Program-made: the position numbers and the translations under genes
The notes under the pieces: generated by a model
What the model was told of the DNA's origin: nothing
Database searches by the model: none
Seen by the model: the letters and a program-made list of their open reading frames with translations, nothing else
Assembly: GCA_043814095.1 (NCBI GenBank)
Contig: JBDRKI010000102.1
Span: 15,716 to 79,715 of the forward strand
Direction of reading: 5' to 3'
DNA length: 64,000 nt
From: Armatimonadota bacterium
Lineage (GTDB): Bacteria > Vulcanimicrobiota > JACPDS01 > JBDRKI01
Shown: positions 2,420-38,757 of the stretch, piece by piece
Layout of the letters: each line of letters opens with the position of its first letter
How positions within the stretch are numbered: position 1 is the first letter of the stretch

Positions 2420-4996
2420 ATGAGACTTGATAAATTTACGGTAAAAGCGCAGGAATCAATAGCTGAAGCTCAGCATTTAGCTGATGAATATAAAAATCAG
2501 GAGATTCAGCCCGAACATCTGTTTCTTGCTTTGATTGACCAGGAAGGCGGTGTTGTCCGCTCCATAATTGAAAAACTGGGTTCGAACTACGAAGCGGTAA
2601 AACCGCTTGTTATTCAGGAGATAAATAAATTTCCTAAAGTCTCTGGTGCGGTATCGCAAACATATATCTCGCCTTCATTTAAGAACCTGCTTGATGTCGC
2701 GTATAATGAGAGTACAAGGTTAAAAGACGAGTATGTAAGCACAGAGCATCTTTTCATAGCTTTAGCGAAATCTGATACTCCTTCGGGCAGAATATTAAAA
2801 AGCTTAGGCATTACCGCTGATGCTATTTATAAAGTGCTGGTTGATATAAGGGGGTCGCAGCGTGTTACCGACCAGAACCCCGAAGATAAATACCAGGCGC
2901 TTACTAAGTACGGGAGAGATCTTACCGAACTTGCAAGGAAAGGCAAGCTTGACCCCGTTATAGGAAGGGATGAAGAGATAAGGCGCACCATCCAGGTTCT
3001 CTCGCGCAGGACGAAAAATAATCCCGTTCTTATAGGCGAACCGGGCGTGGGTAAAACCGCGGTGGTTGAGGGGCTTGCCCAGCGCATAGTAAAACAGGAT
3101 GTGCCTGAAGGGCTTAAAAATAAACGCGTTATAGCTCTTGATATAGGGTCGCTTGTCGCAGGGACAAAGTTCAGGGGAGAGTTTGAAGACAGGTTTAAAG
3201 CGGTTTTGAAGGAAATACAAAATTCCGCAGGACAGATAATACTCTTTATTGACGAGCTTCATACACTTGTAGGGGCAGGCGGCGCGGAAGGCGCGGTGGA
3301 TGCCGCTAATATGATAAAACCCGCTTTAGCAAGAGGCGAACTGAGGTGCATAGGAGCTACTACCTTAGATGAATACAGGAAACATATTGAGAAAGACGCG
3401 GCGTTAGAGAGAAGGTTCCAGCCTATATATATTAAGGAGCCTTCGGTTGAGGATACAATCGCGATATTAAGGGGATTAAAAGAAAAATATGAGATTCACC
3501 ACGGTGTTCGCATAAAAGATTCGGCCATAATAGCGGCCGCGGTTTTATCAAACAGGTACATAGCCGACAGATTTCTCCCCGATAAAGCCATAGACCTTAT
3601 TGATGAGGCGGCGTCAAAATTAAGGATGGAGATAGACAGCCTGCCTACAGAGATAGATGAAATAGACAGGAAAATCATGCAGTTGGAAATTGAGAAGCAG
3701 GCGGTAAGCAAAGAAAAAGACGCTCAATCCAAGGAGAGGCTGGAGAAGATAAACAAGGAACTGGCCAAGTTAAAAGAAGAAAGCGATTCTATGAAATGTA
3801 AGTGGCAGAAAGAAAAAGATGGTATTATAAAAATACAGAAGATAAAAGAAGATATGGAATCTGCTAAGCATGAGGAAGAAGAAGCTGAGAGAAAAGGGGA
3901 TCTCCAGAAAGTAGCAGAGTTAAGATACGGGAAACTGGCCGAACTTCAGAAGGAACTGGATAAAGAGAATAAAGCCCTTGAGAAGATGCAGAAAGAACAT
4001 AAATTCTTAAAAGAAGAAGTGGATGAAGAAGACGTGGCGGAAGTCGTCTCAAAATGGACAGGGATCCCTGTTTCTAAGATGCTTGAAAGCGAGATGCAGA
4101 AGCTTATACATATGGAAGAAGACTTAAGAAAAAGAGTAGTAGGGCAGGATGAAGCGATCTTTGCGGTGGCAAACGCAATAAGGCGTTCACGCGCGGGAAT
4201 ATCTGATGAGAACAAGCCCATGGGTTCATTTTTGTTTTTAGGCCCTACGGGTGTAGGCAAGACCGAGCTTACCAAAGCTCTGGCGGAATTTTTATTCGGT
4301 GACGAGAAGGCAATGGTCCGCATAGATATGTCTGAGTACATGGAAAAGCACTCTGTCGCGAGATTGATAGGAGCGCCTCCCGGTTATGTAGGTTATGAAG
4401 AAGGGGGCCAGCTTACCGAAGCCGTGCGCCGGAGGCCTTACAGCGTTATACTATTAGACGAGATAGAGAAAGCCCATACGGATGTATTTAATGTACTGCT
4501 CCAGATACTTGATGACGGGAGACTGACCGACGGTCAGGGCAGGACAGTAGATTTCAGAAACACGCTTATCGTAATGACATCCAATATAGGGAGCCAGTAT
4601 ATAAGGGAGTACGGCCAGAGCGAGCCTGAACTTATGAAGAAAAAGGTTACAGAAGAGCTTAACAACCATTTCAGGCCGGAATTTTTAAACAGGATTGATG
4701 AGATCGTCTTCTTTAACCAGTTAACCAAAGAAGATATAGGAAAAATTATTGATCTTCAGATAGCATATTTAGATAAACGGTTAAAGCTGAGAAAGATAGA
4801 TGTTGAATTAACCGATAAAGCGAAAGAATACATAGCCAATGTGGGTTTTGATCCTGTTTTCGGAGCAAGGCCCATAAAAAGAGCCATACAGAAATATATT
4901 CAGGATCCCTTAGCGATGAAAATATTAAGCGGTGACATAAAAGAAGGCTCTAAAGTAAAAATAGACTGCGCCGGAGGCGAGATAGTTATTAAATAG
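2420..4996 (+). CDS. clpB: ATP-dependent chaperone ClpB (AAA+ disaggregase with a long coiled-coil M-domain)
   Basis: Two Walker A boxes ([16 protein letters not shown]), a Clp_N domain and a long KE-rich coiled-coil insert between the NBDs. No ClpP-binding tripeptide. GGAGG RBS 6 nt before the ATG at 2420; the ORF-track start at 2408 is TTG. Confidence 0.9.
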
Positions 4997-23277: not shown

Positions 23278-23398
23278 AATTTAAGAGAATTCTATAAAAA
23301 ACAGAGTTACCCTTCCTTGCCTTGCGGGCTTGACCTTATGACTCATAAATGATACACTAATAGTGGGACATATATGCATCACTAGGAGGTTTGTAAAT

Positions 23399-23662
23399 AT
23401 GGCTGTCAGGAAAAATAGAATTCCCGTAACATTAGAATCTGTATTATATGAATGGATATTAAGTGAAGCCAAGAGACAGGGTATTTCCATTTCCCAGGCA
23501 ATTAGAGATGCCGTAAAGCTTGCATATGAATGGTCTGCCACATTTGAAGTGCTTTCAAGCGAAGAACTTACATTACAGCTCCAGCAGAGCGGCAAAGGTT
23601 CTGCAAAACATTATGTGCCTTTTGATGAGGTAAAGCGTGATGTATACCGCCGTTCTAAGTAA
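23399..23662 (+). CDS. Ribbon-helix-helix (CopG/RHH-type) antitoxin of a type II TA pair
   Basis: 87 aa with an AGGAGG RBS before the ATG at 23399. 3' end overlaps the toxin gene. Confidence 0.6.
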   Translation: MAVRKNRIPVTLESVLYEWILSEAKRQGISISQAIRDAVKLAYEWSATFEVLSSEELTLQLQQSGKGSAKHYVPFDEVKRDVYRRSK

Positions 23663-23897
23663 GCCGTCTGCAAAATATTTGGAAAATTTGCCGTTAAAGC
23701 AGGCTGAATTAATAATTGATAAGGTTGAAGATCTGCGGAGGGAACCTTTTCAAAATTCAATTTCTCTACAGGGACCCTTAAGAGATTTAAGAAGATCAAA
23801 AGCTGGAAAATTCAGGATAATATTTGAATTGGTTGAAAGTAAAAAAGAAATAATAATAAAAGCTATCGGACCAAGAGGCGACATATATAAAAGATAA
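23640..23897 (+). CDS. RelE/ParE-family type II toxin
   Basis: 85 aa with a RelE/ParE-like C-terminal basic region (GPLRDLRRSKAGKFRIIFELV..IIIKAIGPRGDIY). Overlaps the upstream antitoxin. Confidence 0.65.
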   Translation: MYTAVLSKPSAKYLENLPLKQAELIIDKVEDLRREPFQNSISLQGPLRDLRRSKAGKFRIIFELVESKKEIIIKAIGPRGDIYKR

Positions 23898-23918
23898 ATA
23901 ATAAATATTGAGGATTAT

Positions 23919-23952
23919 ATAGAAACACCCGGATAATTCCGGGTGTTTCTAT
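23919..23952 (+). terminator. Perfect 15-bp hairpin (ATAGAAACACCCGGA-TAAT-TCCGGGTGTTTCTAT) plus T-rich tail after the TA operon
   Basis: Perfect inverted repeat followed by ATTTATTAT. Confidence 0.55.
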
Positions 23953-24043
23953 ATTTATTATCATATAAAAGGGAAGAGAAAAGAACTATAGAAATATCAG
24001 GTAGCAAATGGTAGAATTAATATAAAATATATTTGGAGATGTT

Positions 24044-35943: not shown

Positions 35944-36870
35944 TTACTTCCTCGGATGACTCTTCTTGTAAGTCTCTTCTATATGTTTTAATGAAATATT
36001 AGTATATATCTGTGTAGTAGACAGGTTCTCATGGCCTAAAAGCTCTTTTATGCTCATAAGATCAGCTCCGCCTTCAAGCATATGCGTGGCGAAACTATGC
36101 CTAAGCGTATGAGGGGAGGCATCTTTATTTATCCCTGCCGCCTTTTTATACTTATCGAAAATGTATTCTATCATCCTATCTGAGATACGAACATTTTTTC
36201 TGCTGATGAATAGGGCAGGGGAACTGACTTTCGGCCTTATAGTCAAATAATCTTTTACCGCCTTTTTCGTGGACTCGTTTATAAGGACAAATCTTTCTTT
36301 ATTTCCTTTTCCTCTTACTTTTATAAGCATATTCTCAAAATCTATGCTGTCGTGGTTTATGCTGACAAGCTCGCTTATTCTCAGGCCGGTAGCGTAGAAG
36401 AGCTCAAAAATAGCCTTGTCTCTGATAGAATAGGGATCCCGGGACTCTGCTATTGTCTCAAAGAATTTTTCCATCTCTTCCTTAGTGAGGACATTGGGCA
36501 GCTGCTTGCCCAGTTTGGCGCTCTTTATCTTGGTCATGGACGACTTTTTAACAATCCCTTCAGACTCTAAAAACGCAAAATATGCCTTTAATGTGGCGAT
36601 TTTTCTATTTAGTCCCTTAGGTGAATACTTCTTATCAAGCTTAAGATAGGTCAAGAACTCCCTTACAGTCCTTTCATCTATATCATCAAGAACCATTCCT
36701 TTTTTAATCTGGGGGAGGAAGAATGAGAAAAATATTTTTAAATCATGGGAATATTCTTCTATTGTTCTCGGCGCCAGATTTTCCTCAACGGCCAGATAAT
36801 TAAGAAAGTCTTTTACCAGAAACTCGCGTTCGCGCTCCTTAAACATGTTTTCCACAGAACAATTATCCAC
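35944..36870 (-). CDS. Tyrosine site-specific recombinase of the XerC/XerD type
   Basis: 308 aa with a C-terminal HTLRHSFATHML..LLGH..TTQIYT catalytic region including the Tyr. Confidence 0.85.
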   Translation of the reverse strand: MDNCSVENMFKEREREFLVKDFLNYLAVEENLAPRTIEEYSHDLKIFFSFFLPQIKKGMVLDDIDERTVREFLTYLKLDKKYSPKGLNRKIATLKAYFAFLESEGIVKKSSMTKIKSAKLGKQLPNVLTKEEMEKFFETIAESRDPYSIRDKAIFELFYATGLRISELVSINHDSIDFENMLIKVRGKGNKERFVLINESTKKAVKDYLTIRPKVSSPALFISRKNVRISDRMIEYIFDKYKKAAGINKDASPHTLRHSFATHMLEGGADLMSIKELLGHENLSTTQIYTNISLKHIEETYKKSHPRK

Positions 36871-37204
36871 AGATTTTCACCATCCTTGTTTTTTACTGTT
36901 CGATGCTTTAGGGGAGTATTTCTCTGTCCGGCTCCAATCTCCTCTTTATTCGTCAAAGATATGTTTGTCGAAATTGGGGGAGGGGGATCTGCAGAATAAA
37001 TAACGGCTTGGAATAATGCTTTTTTAGATAAGGGTCTATGGCCCGGGCTTATATGCCCTTATAATGATATAAATAAATATTTCTACATATAATATTACAT
37101 ATAATATAATGATAATTAAGTATCTCTATTCGCCTATTCAAATCTTTAATTAAAATATTTCAGCCCCTTATCTTCCATCCTTAAAATACCACTATACCCT
37201 CCAA

Positions 37205-37295
37205 TACATATATGTCTAAAGGCAAATTTTAAACCCCTTAAAACGCATTTAAATGCGCCGGATTTTTACGGTATTTTACCCCTGCCGGTTTTATA
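37205..37295 (+). repeat. Repeat A copy 1 (ACATATATGTCTAAA..AACCCC.TTAAAA.GCA..TAAATGCG..GGA.TTT..GCCGG..TTTT), intergenic
   Basis: ~60-90-bp element with about 75% identity to copy 2 at 37641. No ORF over 20 aa. Confidence 0.5.
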
Positions 37296-37487
37296 TGATT
37301 TATTAACCCTGTTTCTGTTTTTTTTAATTATTTGATATGTTAACTTATTTTTTGAAAATTAATTTTAATTTGTATTAAATTTATTTTTATGGATATTTTT
37401 TAAAATATATTTTATTGAAGATATAAAAACATACGAATAAATTTTTATGAATATAAACCAGCAGAATGTAAAATAATAAAAATATCA

Positions 37488-37540
37488 ATAGGGGAATTTA
37501 AAAATTTTCAAACTCCCCTATCTGTTTTTGTGTTTTTTCG
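37488..37540. terminator. Hairpin B copy 1 (ATAGGGGAATTT..AAACTCCCCTAT) followed by a T-rich tail
   Basis: 12-bp stem with one mismatch and a 9-nt loop, then TCTGTTTTTGTGTTTTTTCG. Near-identical to copy 2. Confidence 0.5.
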
Positions 37541-37640
37541 TAATGATCTATATTTTCAAATATGACATATCCGGCAAATGCTTGATATATATAGCATTAA
37601 TAGTGATTATCTCTCAGGTTTGATTTTTAATTAAGCGGTA

Positions 37641-37735
37641 TACATATATGCCTAAATCCGGATTTCAACCCCATTAAAAGGCAAATAAATGCGTCAGAAT
37701 TTGGAGCTGATTTCATTTTTCGCCGGCTCGGTTTT
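37641..37735 (+). repeat. Repeat A copy 2
   Basis: TACATATATGCCTAAA..CAACCCCATTAAAAGGCAAATAAATGCGTCAGAATTT..CGCCGGCTCGGTTTTT. Aligns with copy 1. Confidence 0.5.
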
Positions 37736-37772
37736 TGTCTTAAACTTTTATACAGATAATGCAAAAATAATA

Positions 37773-37820
37773 ATAGGGGAATTTATTTTTTTTAAAAAAA
37801 ACTCCCCTATCTGAATTTGT
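37773..37820. terminator. Hairpin B copy 2 (ATAGGGGAATTT..ACTCCCCTAT), probable terminator of the DUF167 gene
   Basis: Same GGGGA/TCCCC stem as copy 1, with an AT loop containing T8A8. Sits 29 nt downstream of the DUF167 stop on the minus strand. Confidence 0.5.
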
Positions 37821-37848
37821 GTATGTTTATGATTTATTTTTTTGTATT

Positions 37849-38133
37849 TTACATGTTCTTTATTTTTTTTATTAAATTTTCTCTGCTAATTTTAATTCCA
37901 ATTAATTTGTTCTGAACGGTTTCGCCTTTTAAAATTATAAGATCGGATTTTCTTATGTCTAATTTTTTTGATAACAGATCTATAACAGCCTTGTTTGCTT
38001 TTCCTTTTTCAGGCGCAGATGTAACTTTAATATAAAATTTGCTATCCCTTAAATCAATCTCGTTTTTCCTTGATTTAGGATTAACCTTAACTTCACAAGT
38101 TACATATTCTTTATATATACCTGTTTTTATCAT
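37849..38133 (-). CDS. DUF167 / YggU-family small protein
   Basis: 94 aa with a V..KVNPKSRKNEI.. signature reminiscent of UPF0235/YggU proteins. Confidence 0.65.
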   Translation of the reverse strand: MIKTGIYKEYVTCEVKVNPKSRKNEIDLRDSKFYIKVTSAPEKGKANKAVIDLLSKKLDIRKSDLIILKGETVQNKLIGIKISRENLIKKIKNM

Positions 38134-38205
38134 TATTTTATCCTTATATCTATATATTTCTTTCTAAGATTAAAAAATCCTTGTTTTATGCAATTTTTTA
38201 CCCCT

Positions 38206-38255
38206 AAAATGTTAACAATTTTGTAACATTTTGGCAATATTTTGGTAACATTACT
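38206..38255 (+). promoter_or_regulatory. Putative operator: imperfect palindrome AAAATGTTAAC-N6-GTAACATTTT followed by GTAACATTTTGG / CAATATTTTGG / TAACATTACTGG direct repeats, upstream of a TATAAT box
   Basis: Seen directly in the sequence. A TATAAT box lies at 38260-38265, and the gene start is at 38305. Confidence 0.35.
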
Positions 38256-38304
38256 GGATTATAATATAGATATAGAAAAAAAAACAGATCCTGGGGGGTA
38301 AAAT

Positions 38305-38757
38305 ATGGGAAGTTTCAATATAATAAATAGTAATATCAGGACAGGTTATACAAGCGCAATGACAAAATTAAGCACCGAGAAAAAGAAACAAAAGGCGGAA
38401 GAAATTTTAAACAAGCTTTCTGATTTAATAAATAAAGGTGTAATAACTACCAAAAATTATGGTTCTCTTAACAGATGTTTAGAAGATTATAACTGCAGGT
38501 TAAGATTTAAACATACCACAGATAACGATTTGCTTGTCGGTTACAGTTATAAGCTGAAGGACGGCGAAGGATATGTATATTATTCATTCAGGAAAAAAAG
38601 TTATGAAGTTTGTTATATAAAACAGGATGGGTATTCTTTCCGCAGAGCCGAAGATTGTGAAAAAAGATCTCTTAATTCAAAAATAGTAGCTACACATTCA
38701 AAACTTGAAAAAGAAGGTGTAATGCAAAGGCTGGAACAAATGGCTAAAAAATATTAA
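38305..38757 (+). CDS. Hypothetical protein (150 aa)
   Basis: ORF with a G-rich RBS (GGGGGGTAAAAT ATG). No recognised family. Its stop overlaps the rnc stop convergently. Confidence 0.5.
   Translation: MGSFNIINSNIRTGYTSAMTKLSTEKKKQKAEEILNKLSDLINKGVITTKNYGSLNRCLEDYNCRLRFKHTTDNDLLVGYSYKLKDGEGYVYYSFRKKSYEVCYIKQDGYSFRRAEDCEKRSLNSKIVATHSKLEKEGVMQRLEQMAKKY

Follow-up and report, generated by a model that had tools for sequence, protein, structure and literature searches.

A duplicated, conserved non-coding unit between xerC and a DUF167 gene: a candidate pair of paralogous small RNA genes in an uncultured bacterial lineage

Introduction

What could be encoded in a stretch of almost 1 kb that contains no long open reading frame (ORF), in DNA that is otherwise filled with genes? 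This question is raised by positions 36871-37848 of a 64-kb stretch of DNA (hereafter, the window) from an uncultured lineage related to Armatimonadota and Eremiobacterota. The positions form the spacer between a gene for an Xer-type tyrosine recombinase (xerC) and a gene of the DUF167 (YggU) family, both on the - strand, in a syntenic setting of housekeeping genes (FabF, RNase III, DUF167, xerC). A preliminary description had singled out the spacer as the only long non-coding stretch, carrying two diverged direct repeats and two near-identical hairpins. It had proposed two paralogous small RNA (sRNA) genes, with a dif recombination site among the alternatives. The spacer is indeed the sole long ORF-free stretch of the window, the second-largest gap (23281-24025) containing ORFs of 99 and 86 amino acids (aa), and all the repeats and hairpins were found where they had been described.

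We propose, as a tentative reading that could still prove wrong, that the spacer encodes two paralogous candidate small regulatory RNAs of an undescribed family. The proposed units stand in tandem, and each consists of a conserved module (A), a variable stem-loop and a terminator-like hairpin (B). The features are listed in Table 1.

Table 1 Features of the spacer and its flanking genes, in window coordinates.
Feature	Position	Strand	Evidence or remark
Xer-type tyrosine recombinase gene (xerC), flanking	35944..36846	-	NCBI protein MFH1454269.1
Two DnaA-box-like 9-mers, TTTTCCACA and TTATCCACA on the + strand	36848..36871 (boxes at 36848, 36863)	-	Just 5' of ATG 36846
11-6-11 palindrome TATTCGTCAAA-GATATG-TTTGTCGAAAT	36947..36974	.	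Unique in the window; conserved upstream of xerC
Module A1, conserved, unstructured, 65-70 nt	37204..37273	+	nhmmer E = 3e-19; 80% identical to A1' of L013
Unit 1 middle, long variable stem-loop	37263..37482	+	Inverted repeat arms 37263-37296 / 37451-37482
Hairpin B1 and T-rich tail, form of a bidirectional intrinsic terminator	37488..37538 (hairpin 37488-37521)	.	Called by terminator scan on the - strand
Conserved block TCCGGCAAAnnnTTGATATATA and candidate promoter of unit 2	37570..37610	+	TTGATA-17-GATTAT; predicted start near 37618
Module A2, paralogue of A1, most diverged copy	37640..37710	+	nhmmer E = 8e-18; 63-75% identical to other copies
Unit 2 middle, short stem-loop GAGCTG..CGGCTC	37704..37729	+	Predicted, minimum-free-energy and centroid folds
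Hairpin B2 and conserved flanks	37773..37827 (hairpin 37773-37810)	.	DUF167 intrinsic terminator on -; candidate unit 2 terminator on +
DUF167 (YggU family) gene, flanking	37849..38133	-	Protein family models

Sampling of related loci

Relatives were reached by two routes. Homologues of the window XerC led to loci L001 (84% aa identity), L002/L003 (76%), L008 (68%), and L005 and L006 (59% each), and homologues of RNase III led to L012, L013, L014, L015, L016 and L017. Locus L013 is a 17-kb JGI contig that covers the entire block of FabF, RNase III, DUF167, ~960 nt of non-coding DNA and XerC, the last being 76% identical to that of the window. L012 comes from the same sample as L001 and carries the DUF167 end of the spacer. 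An XerC-based search for related loci in the genome collection gave no relatives. The closest named homologues of the window recombinase belonged to Eremiobacterota and Xenobia-type metagenome-assembled genomes (MAGs); the recombinase itself is encoded on a 148-kb contig of a MAG that bears the label Armatimonadota.

Duplication and conservation of module A

A direct repeat of 63 nt, 78% identical and ungapped, was detected by the repeat finder between 37204-37266 and 37640-37702. At its full extent of 65-70 nt, module A is 75-78% identical between the two copies. Both begin with ACATATATG(T/C)CTAAA and include ACCCC..TTAAAA..TAAATGCG, and the left edge is sharp, at ATACATATAT. The seed ACATATATGYCTAAA by itself was within chance, as it was reached in 13 of 100 shuffles; the module of 63-70 nt was beyond chance, with nhmmer E values of 1e-18 to 1e-19. 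Three blocks of A are conserved, namely ATACATATATGYCTAAA, ACCCCTTAAA, and TTTAAATGCG followed by TCAGATTTT. Written as RNA, the module is A/U-rich with a single C-rich, anti-Shine-Dalgarno-like block, ACCCCUU.

The whole arrangement recurred in relatives. The L013 spacer, read in the orientation of the window, has A1' (5104-5034), B1' (4947-4913), A2' (4708-4640) and B2' (4528-4494), and the A-B-A-B order and orientation between DUF167 and xerC is common to both genomes. One A copy, at a matching distance from xerC, was found in L001, and in L012 the DUF167 gene is followed by a B hairpin. As the tips of these two contigs share 25 nt, their genome has at least one A-B unit. Identity among the A copies was 63-83%, and the remaining spacer was 35-50% identical, which is the background for its composition; this difference points to purifying selection on A. 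Conservation of the repeats in related genomes, on which the preliminary description had made its proposal depend, was therefore found in L013 and L001/L012, for both A and B and in the same order and orientation.

Elsewhere, the module was not encountered. The A profile (nhmmer) gave no further copy in the 64 kb or in any of the 17 fetched loci, and the sub-motifs of A were not enriched in the rest of the window. Searched against GTDB genomes and JGI metagenomes, the A pattern had only chance matches, without the TAAATGC half (the source MAG is absent from the genome collection). The B hairpin pattern had no match in viral contigs.

More distant relatives differ at this position. In L005 and L006, three to four genes lie between DUF167 and xerC (L005 4439-7844, L006 4788-7494), coding for DUF6941, a small hypothetical protein and GGDEF, plus a 371-aa gene in L005 only. 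In L016, whose RNase III is 64% identical, the DUF167 stop is followed at 2329-2369 by GGGGAGG-N7-ATG and an ORF, with no B hairpin, and hence A-B units are not universal even among fairly close relatives. Judging from the synteny in close relatives, and from the genes that L005 and L006 have here instead, the A-B units belong to one lineage, about as deep as a genus or a family, in which they keep a fixed position and are under purifying selection.

Two further observations were made on the spacers of the relatives. First, REP-like (repetitive extragenic palindromic) hairpins starting with GTAGCCGCGG, for example GCGGACATAAATGTCCGC (twice), are inserted there, at ~4600-4650 and ~5225-5250 in L013 and at ~230-300 in L001. 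One of them lies inside unit 2 of L013, and the window has no counterpart. Second, short-read assemblies break repeatedly within the spacer, L013 being the sole contig that crosses it. L002/L003 break off at their position 1, 13 nt inside A1; L014 begins with B1' and L015 directly beyond it; the L016 contig also has its end in the spacer; and position 1 of L001 and position 6443 of L012 share only the 25-nt tip GTCATTGCGAGCGAAGCGAAGCAAT. The breaks are likely due to poor coverage of DNA that is very AT-rich or forms hairpins, and strain-level variation may be another cause. A multi-copy repeat was not supported as the cause, because the sequence common to the copies is too short to break assembly graphs.

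These comparisons also bear on whether the units have a function at all. The spacer might be a neutral relic, left behind when the terminator region of DUF167 was duplicated in tandem long ago, or by a small mobile element (a miniature inverted-repeat transposable element (MITE), an IMEX or a cassette), and functionless now. The genes at this position in L005 and L006 indicate that the locus has been remodelled, and such a history would also suit the REP-like insertions and the assembly breaks. A relic would not, however, be expected to keep A at its level of identity across copies and species next to spacer at random level, nor to keep its syntenic position in three genomes. No other A copy was found in the 64 kb or the 17 loci, terminal inverted repeats, target duplications and pseudogene traces were all missing, and the viral, genome and JGI metagenome collections yielded nothing beyond chance. 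We consider a neutral origin very unlikely.

Several more specific identities were rejected. A MITE, an insertion sequence or a REP element does not fit a single syntenic locus without dispersed copies in the 64 kb or the 17 loci. For a CRISPR or another tandem array, Tandem Repeats Finder and the repeat search found trivial A/T repeats only. Decayed genes were rejected too: tblastn with DUF6941, GGDEF and the other proteins that L005 and L006 encode at this position revealed no remnant in the window spacer.

B hairpins as terminators

The hairpins TAGGGGA..TCCCCTA at 37489-37520 and 37774-37809 have no further match in the 64 kb, and two matches did not occur together in any of 100 shuffles. 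Their arms, ATAGGGGAATTT and AAACTCCCCTAT, are the same in both window copies. Each hairpin measures 34-38 nt overall, with a 12-pair stem and a 10-14-nt A/T loop. The stem has a G/C base, GGGGA/UCCCC, and an extension of A/T pairs; an A-tract precedes it, a T-tract follows it, and T-rich tracts are present on both sides. Beyond the stem, B1 and B2 remain alike for 10 nt on the upstream and 17 nt on the downstream side (repeat finder, D3 and D4). From the start of the repeat to the start of the hairpin we measured 285 nt in unit 1 and 134 nt in unit 2, in agreement with the earlier estimate of roughly 130-280 bp, and the T-rich tail reported after the first hairpin was present.

B1 and B2 both have the make-up of an intrinsic terminator, in which a stable, G/C-containing stem-loop leads directly into a U-rich stretch where a transcription unit ends. 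That the second hairpin might terminate the DUF167 gene had been suggested before, and three genomes now support it. This type of hairpin is common to the 3' side of DUF167 (4494-4528 in L013, 6363-6403 in L012), and its distance from the stop codon is 38 nt in the window, 0 nt in L013 and 7 nt in L012. Given this placement, we take B2 to be the intrinsic terminator of DUF167. B1 has a counterpart in L013 at 4913-4947 and is preceded by no ORF on either strand. Its retention as a hairpin in two species, without an ORF before it, means that something non-coding is probably terminated there.

The hairpins do not tell on which strand this would be. One A.C mismatch in the + strand stem turns into a G.U pair on the - strand, and for this reason the window hairpins are stabler as - strand RNA (B1, -20.0 against -10.8 kcal/mol; B2, -18.5 against -13.0 kcal/mol). 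The terminator scan called B1 on the - strand, with 16 pairs and the tail GATATTTTTA. L013 shows no difference between the strands, and L012 a slight advantage of the + strand; because the three genomes disagree, the energies leave the strand undecided.

Architecture and strand of the units

All five units fold alike, with a mostly open A, then a copy-specific stem-loop and then B. Their middles are unrelated; the similarity score between those of unit 1 and unit 2 (20, versus 16.9 +/- 2.7 in shuffles) was not significant. The arms of the unit 1 stem-loop, a 34-nt inverted repeat, surround ~155 nt at ~10% G+C. They pair in minimum-free-energy folds, and their alignment score of 25 was reached by none of 200 shuffles (14 +/- 2.2). 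The sequence of this middle is not conserved in L013.

Upstream of A2, a 22-nt block, TCCGGCAAAnnnTTGATATATA (37570-37591), is conserved between the window and L013, with a score of 29 versus 19 +/- 2.7 and none of 200 shuffles reaching it. A promoter scan of the + strand found the promoter-like TTGATA-17-GATTAT (GATTGT in L013) ~30-58 nt upstream of A2; transcription from it is predicted to start ~20 nt before A2. For unit 1 the scan gave hits in the window only (TCTACA-17-TATAAT, ending at 37110), which are not conserved in L013.

No ORF was conserved across the copies, as tblastx matches occurred in all frames and with stops. The sole frame that is open through all A copies has no start codon, and a TAA immediately precedes it in A1' of L013. 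A 9-codon mini-ORF in A is truncated in A1 and has no ATG in L001. A small protein, a type I toxin or a leader peptide was rejected, since no conserved ORF has a start codon across the copies. The preliminary description had named a small protein gene as the alternative that would speak against sRNA genes, and its proposal survived on this point.

The tandem duplication of a conserved 5' module, variable middle and terminator, kept across species and with no coding gene for B1 to terminate, would be explained most simply by a pair of sRNA genes. We favour the + strand because in that direction each A has its own stem-loop and its own B, because the similarity between the units begins sharply at A and stops ~17 nt after B, and because the promoter-like site conserved before unit 2 is on that strand. 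According to this proposal, the 330 nt nearest xerC (36871-37200) would be the xerC control region, containing the DnaA-box-like 9-mers and the palindrome, and 37204-37827 would hold one non-coding unit twice in tandem. Both copies would be transcribed independently from the + strand, giving RNAs of ~330 nt (unit 1) and ~200 nt (unit 2). Module A would act as the single-stranded functional 5' part, binding a target or a protein. B would serve as the terminator, and in the case of B2 for two converging transcripts, the RNA from the + strand and the DUF167 mRNA from the - strand. Selection would have retained the two genes as ancient paralogues, in the manner of OmrA/OmrB. Transcription, strand, 5' ends and trans-acting function of the units are what we infer from sequence features.

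The opposite strand offers a different explanation. As the reverse complement, A could act in cis as a conserved regulatory module, in a leader or close to a promoter. A1 would then belong to a long (350-430 nt) 5' untranslated or upstream control region of xerC. A short non-coding transcript, ended by B1, would begin with the duplicate A2, and the role of B2 and B1 as terminators would be to shield xerC from DUF167 read-through. Both flanking genes are on the - strand, as is the preference of the window hairpins and the terminator call for B1, and A1 keeps a distance of 350-430 nt on the upstream side of xerC, in L001 and L013 as in the window. In the window, a - strand promoter-like TAGACA-16-TATAGT overlaps the edge of A1, and the conserved block 37570-37591 would fall inside the transcript from A2 to B1. 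The promoter-like site is, however, not conserved in L013 or L001, and the hairpins of L013 and L012 have no - strand preference. Moreover, the side of A1 towards xerC and the side of A2 towards B1 have no similarity, and the reverse complement of A has no conserved fold. We find this explanation doubtful, but regard it as a serious contender.

Structure and possible binding functions of module A

Checks on RNA structure, as proposed in the preliminary description, identified no known family. Rfam 15 covariance models at gathering thresholds had no hits in the whole window, and at E <= 10 over 36700-38350 they matched hairpin look-alikes only (mir-361, at 22 bits versus a threshold of 70, and similar). 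ARAGORN found no tRNA or tmRNA.

A number of results weigh against the proposed pair of sRNA genes. The consensus fold of A had energies of only -0.02 and -2.0 kcal/mol on the two strands, with no conserved structure and no compensatory changes. Unstructured conservation over 65 nt is long for an sRNA seed, and equally fits a DNA-level protein-binding region. By inspection, neither a sigma-70 nor a sigma-54 consensus fitted inside A on either strand, and before A1 there was no convincing conserved promoter-like site. Both window B hairpins, at ~6-9 kcal/mol stabler as - strand RNA, would serve - strand transcripts at least as well. The comparison of A-B units covers three genomes and five A copies, all closely related, and concerted evolution may have been at work, as the A copies of one genome resemble each other no less than they resemble their orthologues. 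Of the earlier proposal, the layout of two paralogous units thus stood, being conserved in L013 and L001/L012; a conserved fold in A did not, and a promoter-like site was conserved for unit 2 only.

Because the conservation of A is purely at the level of primary sequence, a DNA-level function has to be weighed. A could be a protein-binding module and B plain terminators. The two A copies would be Xer accessory or recognition sites, as direct repeats bracketing 436 bp, or a binding array for a nucleoid, replication-termination or regulator protein. In keeping with this, two palindromes, CATATATG and TTTAAA, lie within A, as do three YTAAA motifs at intervals of ~22 and ~11 bp. A is confined to the surroundings of a recombinase for which XerA is the one model passed, and the cumulative GC skew of the window peaks at 34-36 kb. 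Furthermore, recombinase gene and site are united in one module in xerS/difSL and in some xerA/dif pairs (PMC5357621). On the other hand, A has no 11-6-11 (or 9-13 / 6-8) inverted-arm recombinase core, and its copies, at just 75% identity, are too diverged for partners in one recombination reaction. The GC skew is not monotonic, running from positive to negative at the spacer, and it is uninformative on the terminus because it tracks gene orientation. A DNA module would also leave the constant pairing of A with a downstream stem-loop and terminator unexplained, and a better candidate for a recombinase site is already available in the palindrome at 36947-36974. Taken together, a purely DNA-level role for A seems unlikely. 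A resemblance of ATATGTCTAAAG to the cores of Tus/RTP Ter sites, which would need a 1-4-nt gap, was set aside.

The proposed xerC control region

Relative to the proposed RNA genes, the DNA next to xerC carries separate elements. The annotated start of xerC, GTG 36870 (308 aa), is probably 8 codons too early, and ATG 36846 (300 aa) the more likely start, because distant homologues have 300 aa and conserved DnaA-box-like 9-mers lie between the GTG and the ATG. One of these is a perfect TTATCCACA, which occurs nowhere else in the window. L001 and L002/L013 carry the block TCCACAGAACAGTTATCCACAG without any change, and in L008 3-5 boxes precede the ATG. A replication origin was rejected: there are two DnaA boxes only (36848, 36863), the sign of the skew is wrong, and L013 does not share the AT-rich core.

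The palindrome occurs as one copy, 40-170 nt upstream of xerC, in L001 (413-436), L002/L003 (293-316 in L002), L013 (5385-5408), L005 (7935-7958) and L008 (35-58), with the core TTCGNCAAA-GATATG-TTTGNCGAA. Eight of its 11 arm pairs are invariant in the alignment, and one covaries (CG, AU, UA). In 11-6-11 geometry, in uniqueness within the window and in conserved linkage with a recombinase gene it resembles dif. The recombinase scored 306 bits against the XerC model (cutoff 335) and 287 against XerD (cutoff 330), and passed the XerA (single-recombinase) model NF040815 with 260 bits (cutoff 220). No second xer gene was found in the window and no classical dif (ATAA-N6-TTAT) in the spacer.

Three roles are conceivable for the palindrome: a site of dif type or for Xer binding, an operator, or a hairpin formed by the leader RNA of xerC. 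Extra half-sites in L001, L013 and L006 make an operator equally plausible. The earlier suggestion of a dif site was rejected for the repeats and hairpins, A having no inverted arms and two copies at 75% identity, and B being a 12-bp stem with a 10-14-nt loop. It may hold for the palindrome, a different element, given the XerA-model recombinase, the 11-6-11 geometry of archaeal dif and the known adjacent recombinase/dif modules. One could go further and view the A modules as repeated DNA sites that act with a single Xer recombinase and the dif-like palindrome, which would make the spacer an undescribed xer/dif module with accessory architecture, in an uncultured lineage of phylum rank. The A copies might then be accessory or synapsis sites, borders of a small excisable segment, or polar terminus-organising sites. 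We give this explanation very little credence.

Other features of the window

Between RNase III and DUF167, on the opposite (+) strand, lies a 150-aa ORF (38305-38757) without a Pfam or NCBIfam match. It occurs in this genome only and is absent from L006, L012, L013 and L016. The tandem repeat TAACATTTTGG (3.6 copies, 38213-38252) is found upstream of it. In the second-largest gap, the ORFs of 99 aa (23363-23662) and 86 aa (23637-23897) overlap on the + strand, and their arrangement looks like that of a toxin-antitoxin-type pair.

Significance and comparison with known systems

If transcribed, the units would be the first candidate trans-acting sRNAs described from this group of uncultured relatives of Armatimonadota and Eremiobacterota, and a natural case of sRNA gene duplication kept across species, useful for studying how paralogous sRNAs diverge. 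The A profile, together with DUF167 and xerC as syntenic anchors, provides a means of finding further members. As for the palindrome, its neighbouring recombinase passes the XerA model alone, which makes it a testable candidate for a bacterial xer/dif module with a single recombinase. What we describe is a lineage-restricted candidate family, cleanly delimited and conserved; it does not overturn current understanding and is unsurprising in principle.

Four known systems invite comparison. The first is the integron, with which the locus shares a tyrosine recombinase transcribed away from an array of ORF-less units that end in an imperfect palindrome. The NCBI product name even includes 'integron integrase', but this name derives from the XerA model. 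An integron was rejected, as the recombinase fails the IntI models (TIGR02249, 139 bits with a cutoff of 265; NF011946, 87 bits with a cutoff of 435), the B hairpins of 34-38 nt have no RYYYAAC/GTTRRRY attC ends, and the context is one of syntenic housekeeping genes.

The second comparison, with XerS/difSL, XerH/difH and archaeal XerA/dif, concerns the palindrome only. In these systems, xerS directly adjoins difSL, archaeal dif has 11-6-11 geometry, and some xerA/dif pairs are adjacent (PMC5357621). The palindrome likewise has 11-bp arms and a 6-bp centre, and it adjoins, and is conserved with, a recombinase gene that passes the XerA model. Its sequence, however, is unrelated to the canonical dif inner arms (..ATAA-N6-TTAT..), the extra half-sites in relatives fit an operator better, and an RNA hairpin is also possible. 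The A and B repeats differ from dif in lacking the 11-6-11 geometry.

Bidirectional intrinsic (Rho-independent) terminators between convergent units are the third case. B resembles them in its stem, A-tract and T-tract, and in the position of B2 after DUF167. It differs in that B1 has no protein-coding gene on either side, and in that B1 and B2 are near-identical paralogues including their flanks.

OmrA and OmrB of E. coli come closest to the proposed sRNA genes. They are adjacent paralogues on the same strand, with conserved 5' modules and terminator ends and a differing centre (PMC2588501). The window units have no sequence or Rfam relationship to them, their conserved 5' module is ~65 nt long compared with ~20 nt in OmrA/B, and their two putative promoters are not visibly related. 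The layout is nevertheless the same: the units are adjacent and on one strand, with conserved 5' and 3' ends around a divergent centre, each ends in an intrinsic terminator, and the conserved 5' part is predicted to be unstructured. PrrF1 and PrrF2 in Pseudomonas are a similar case of paired paralogous sRNAs.

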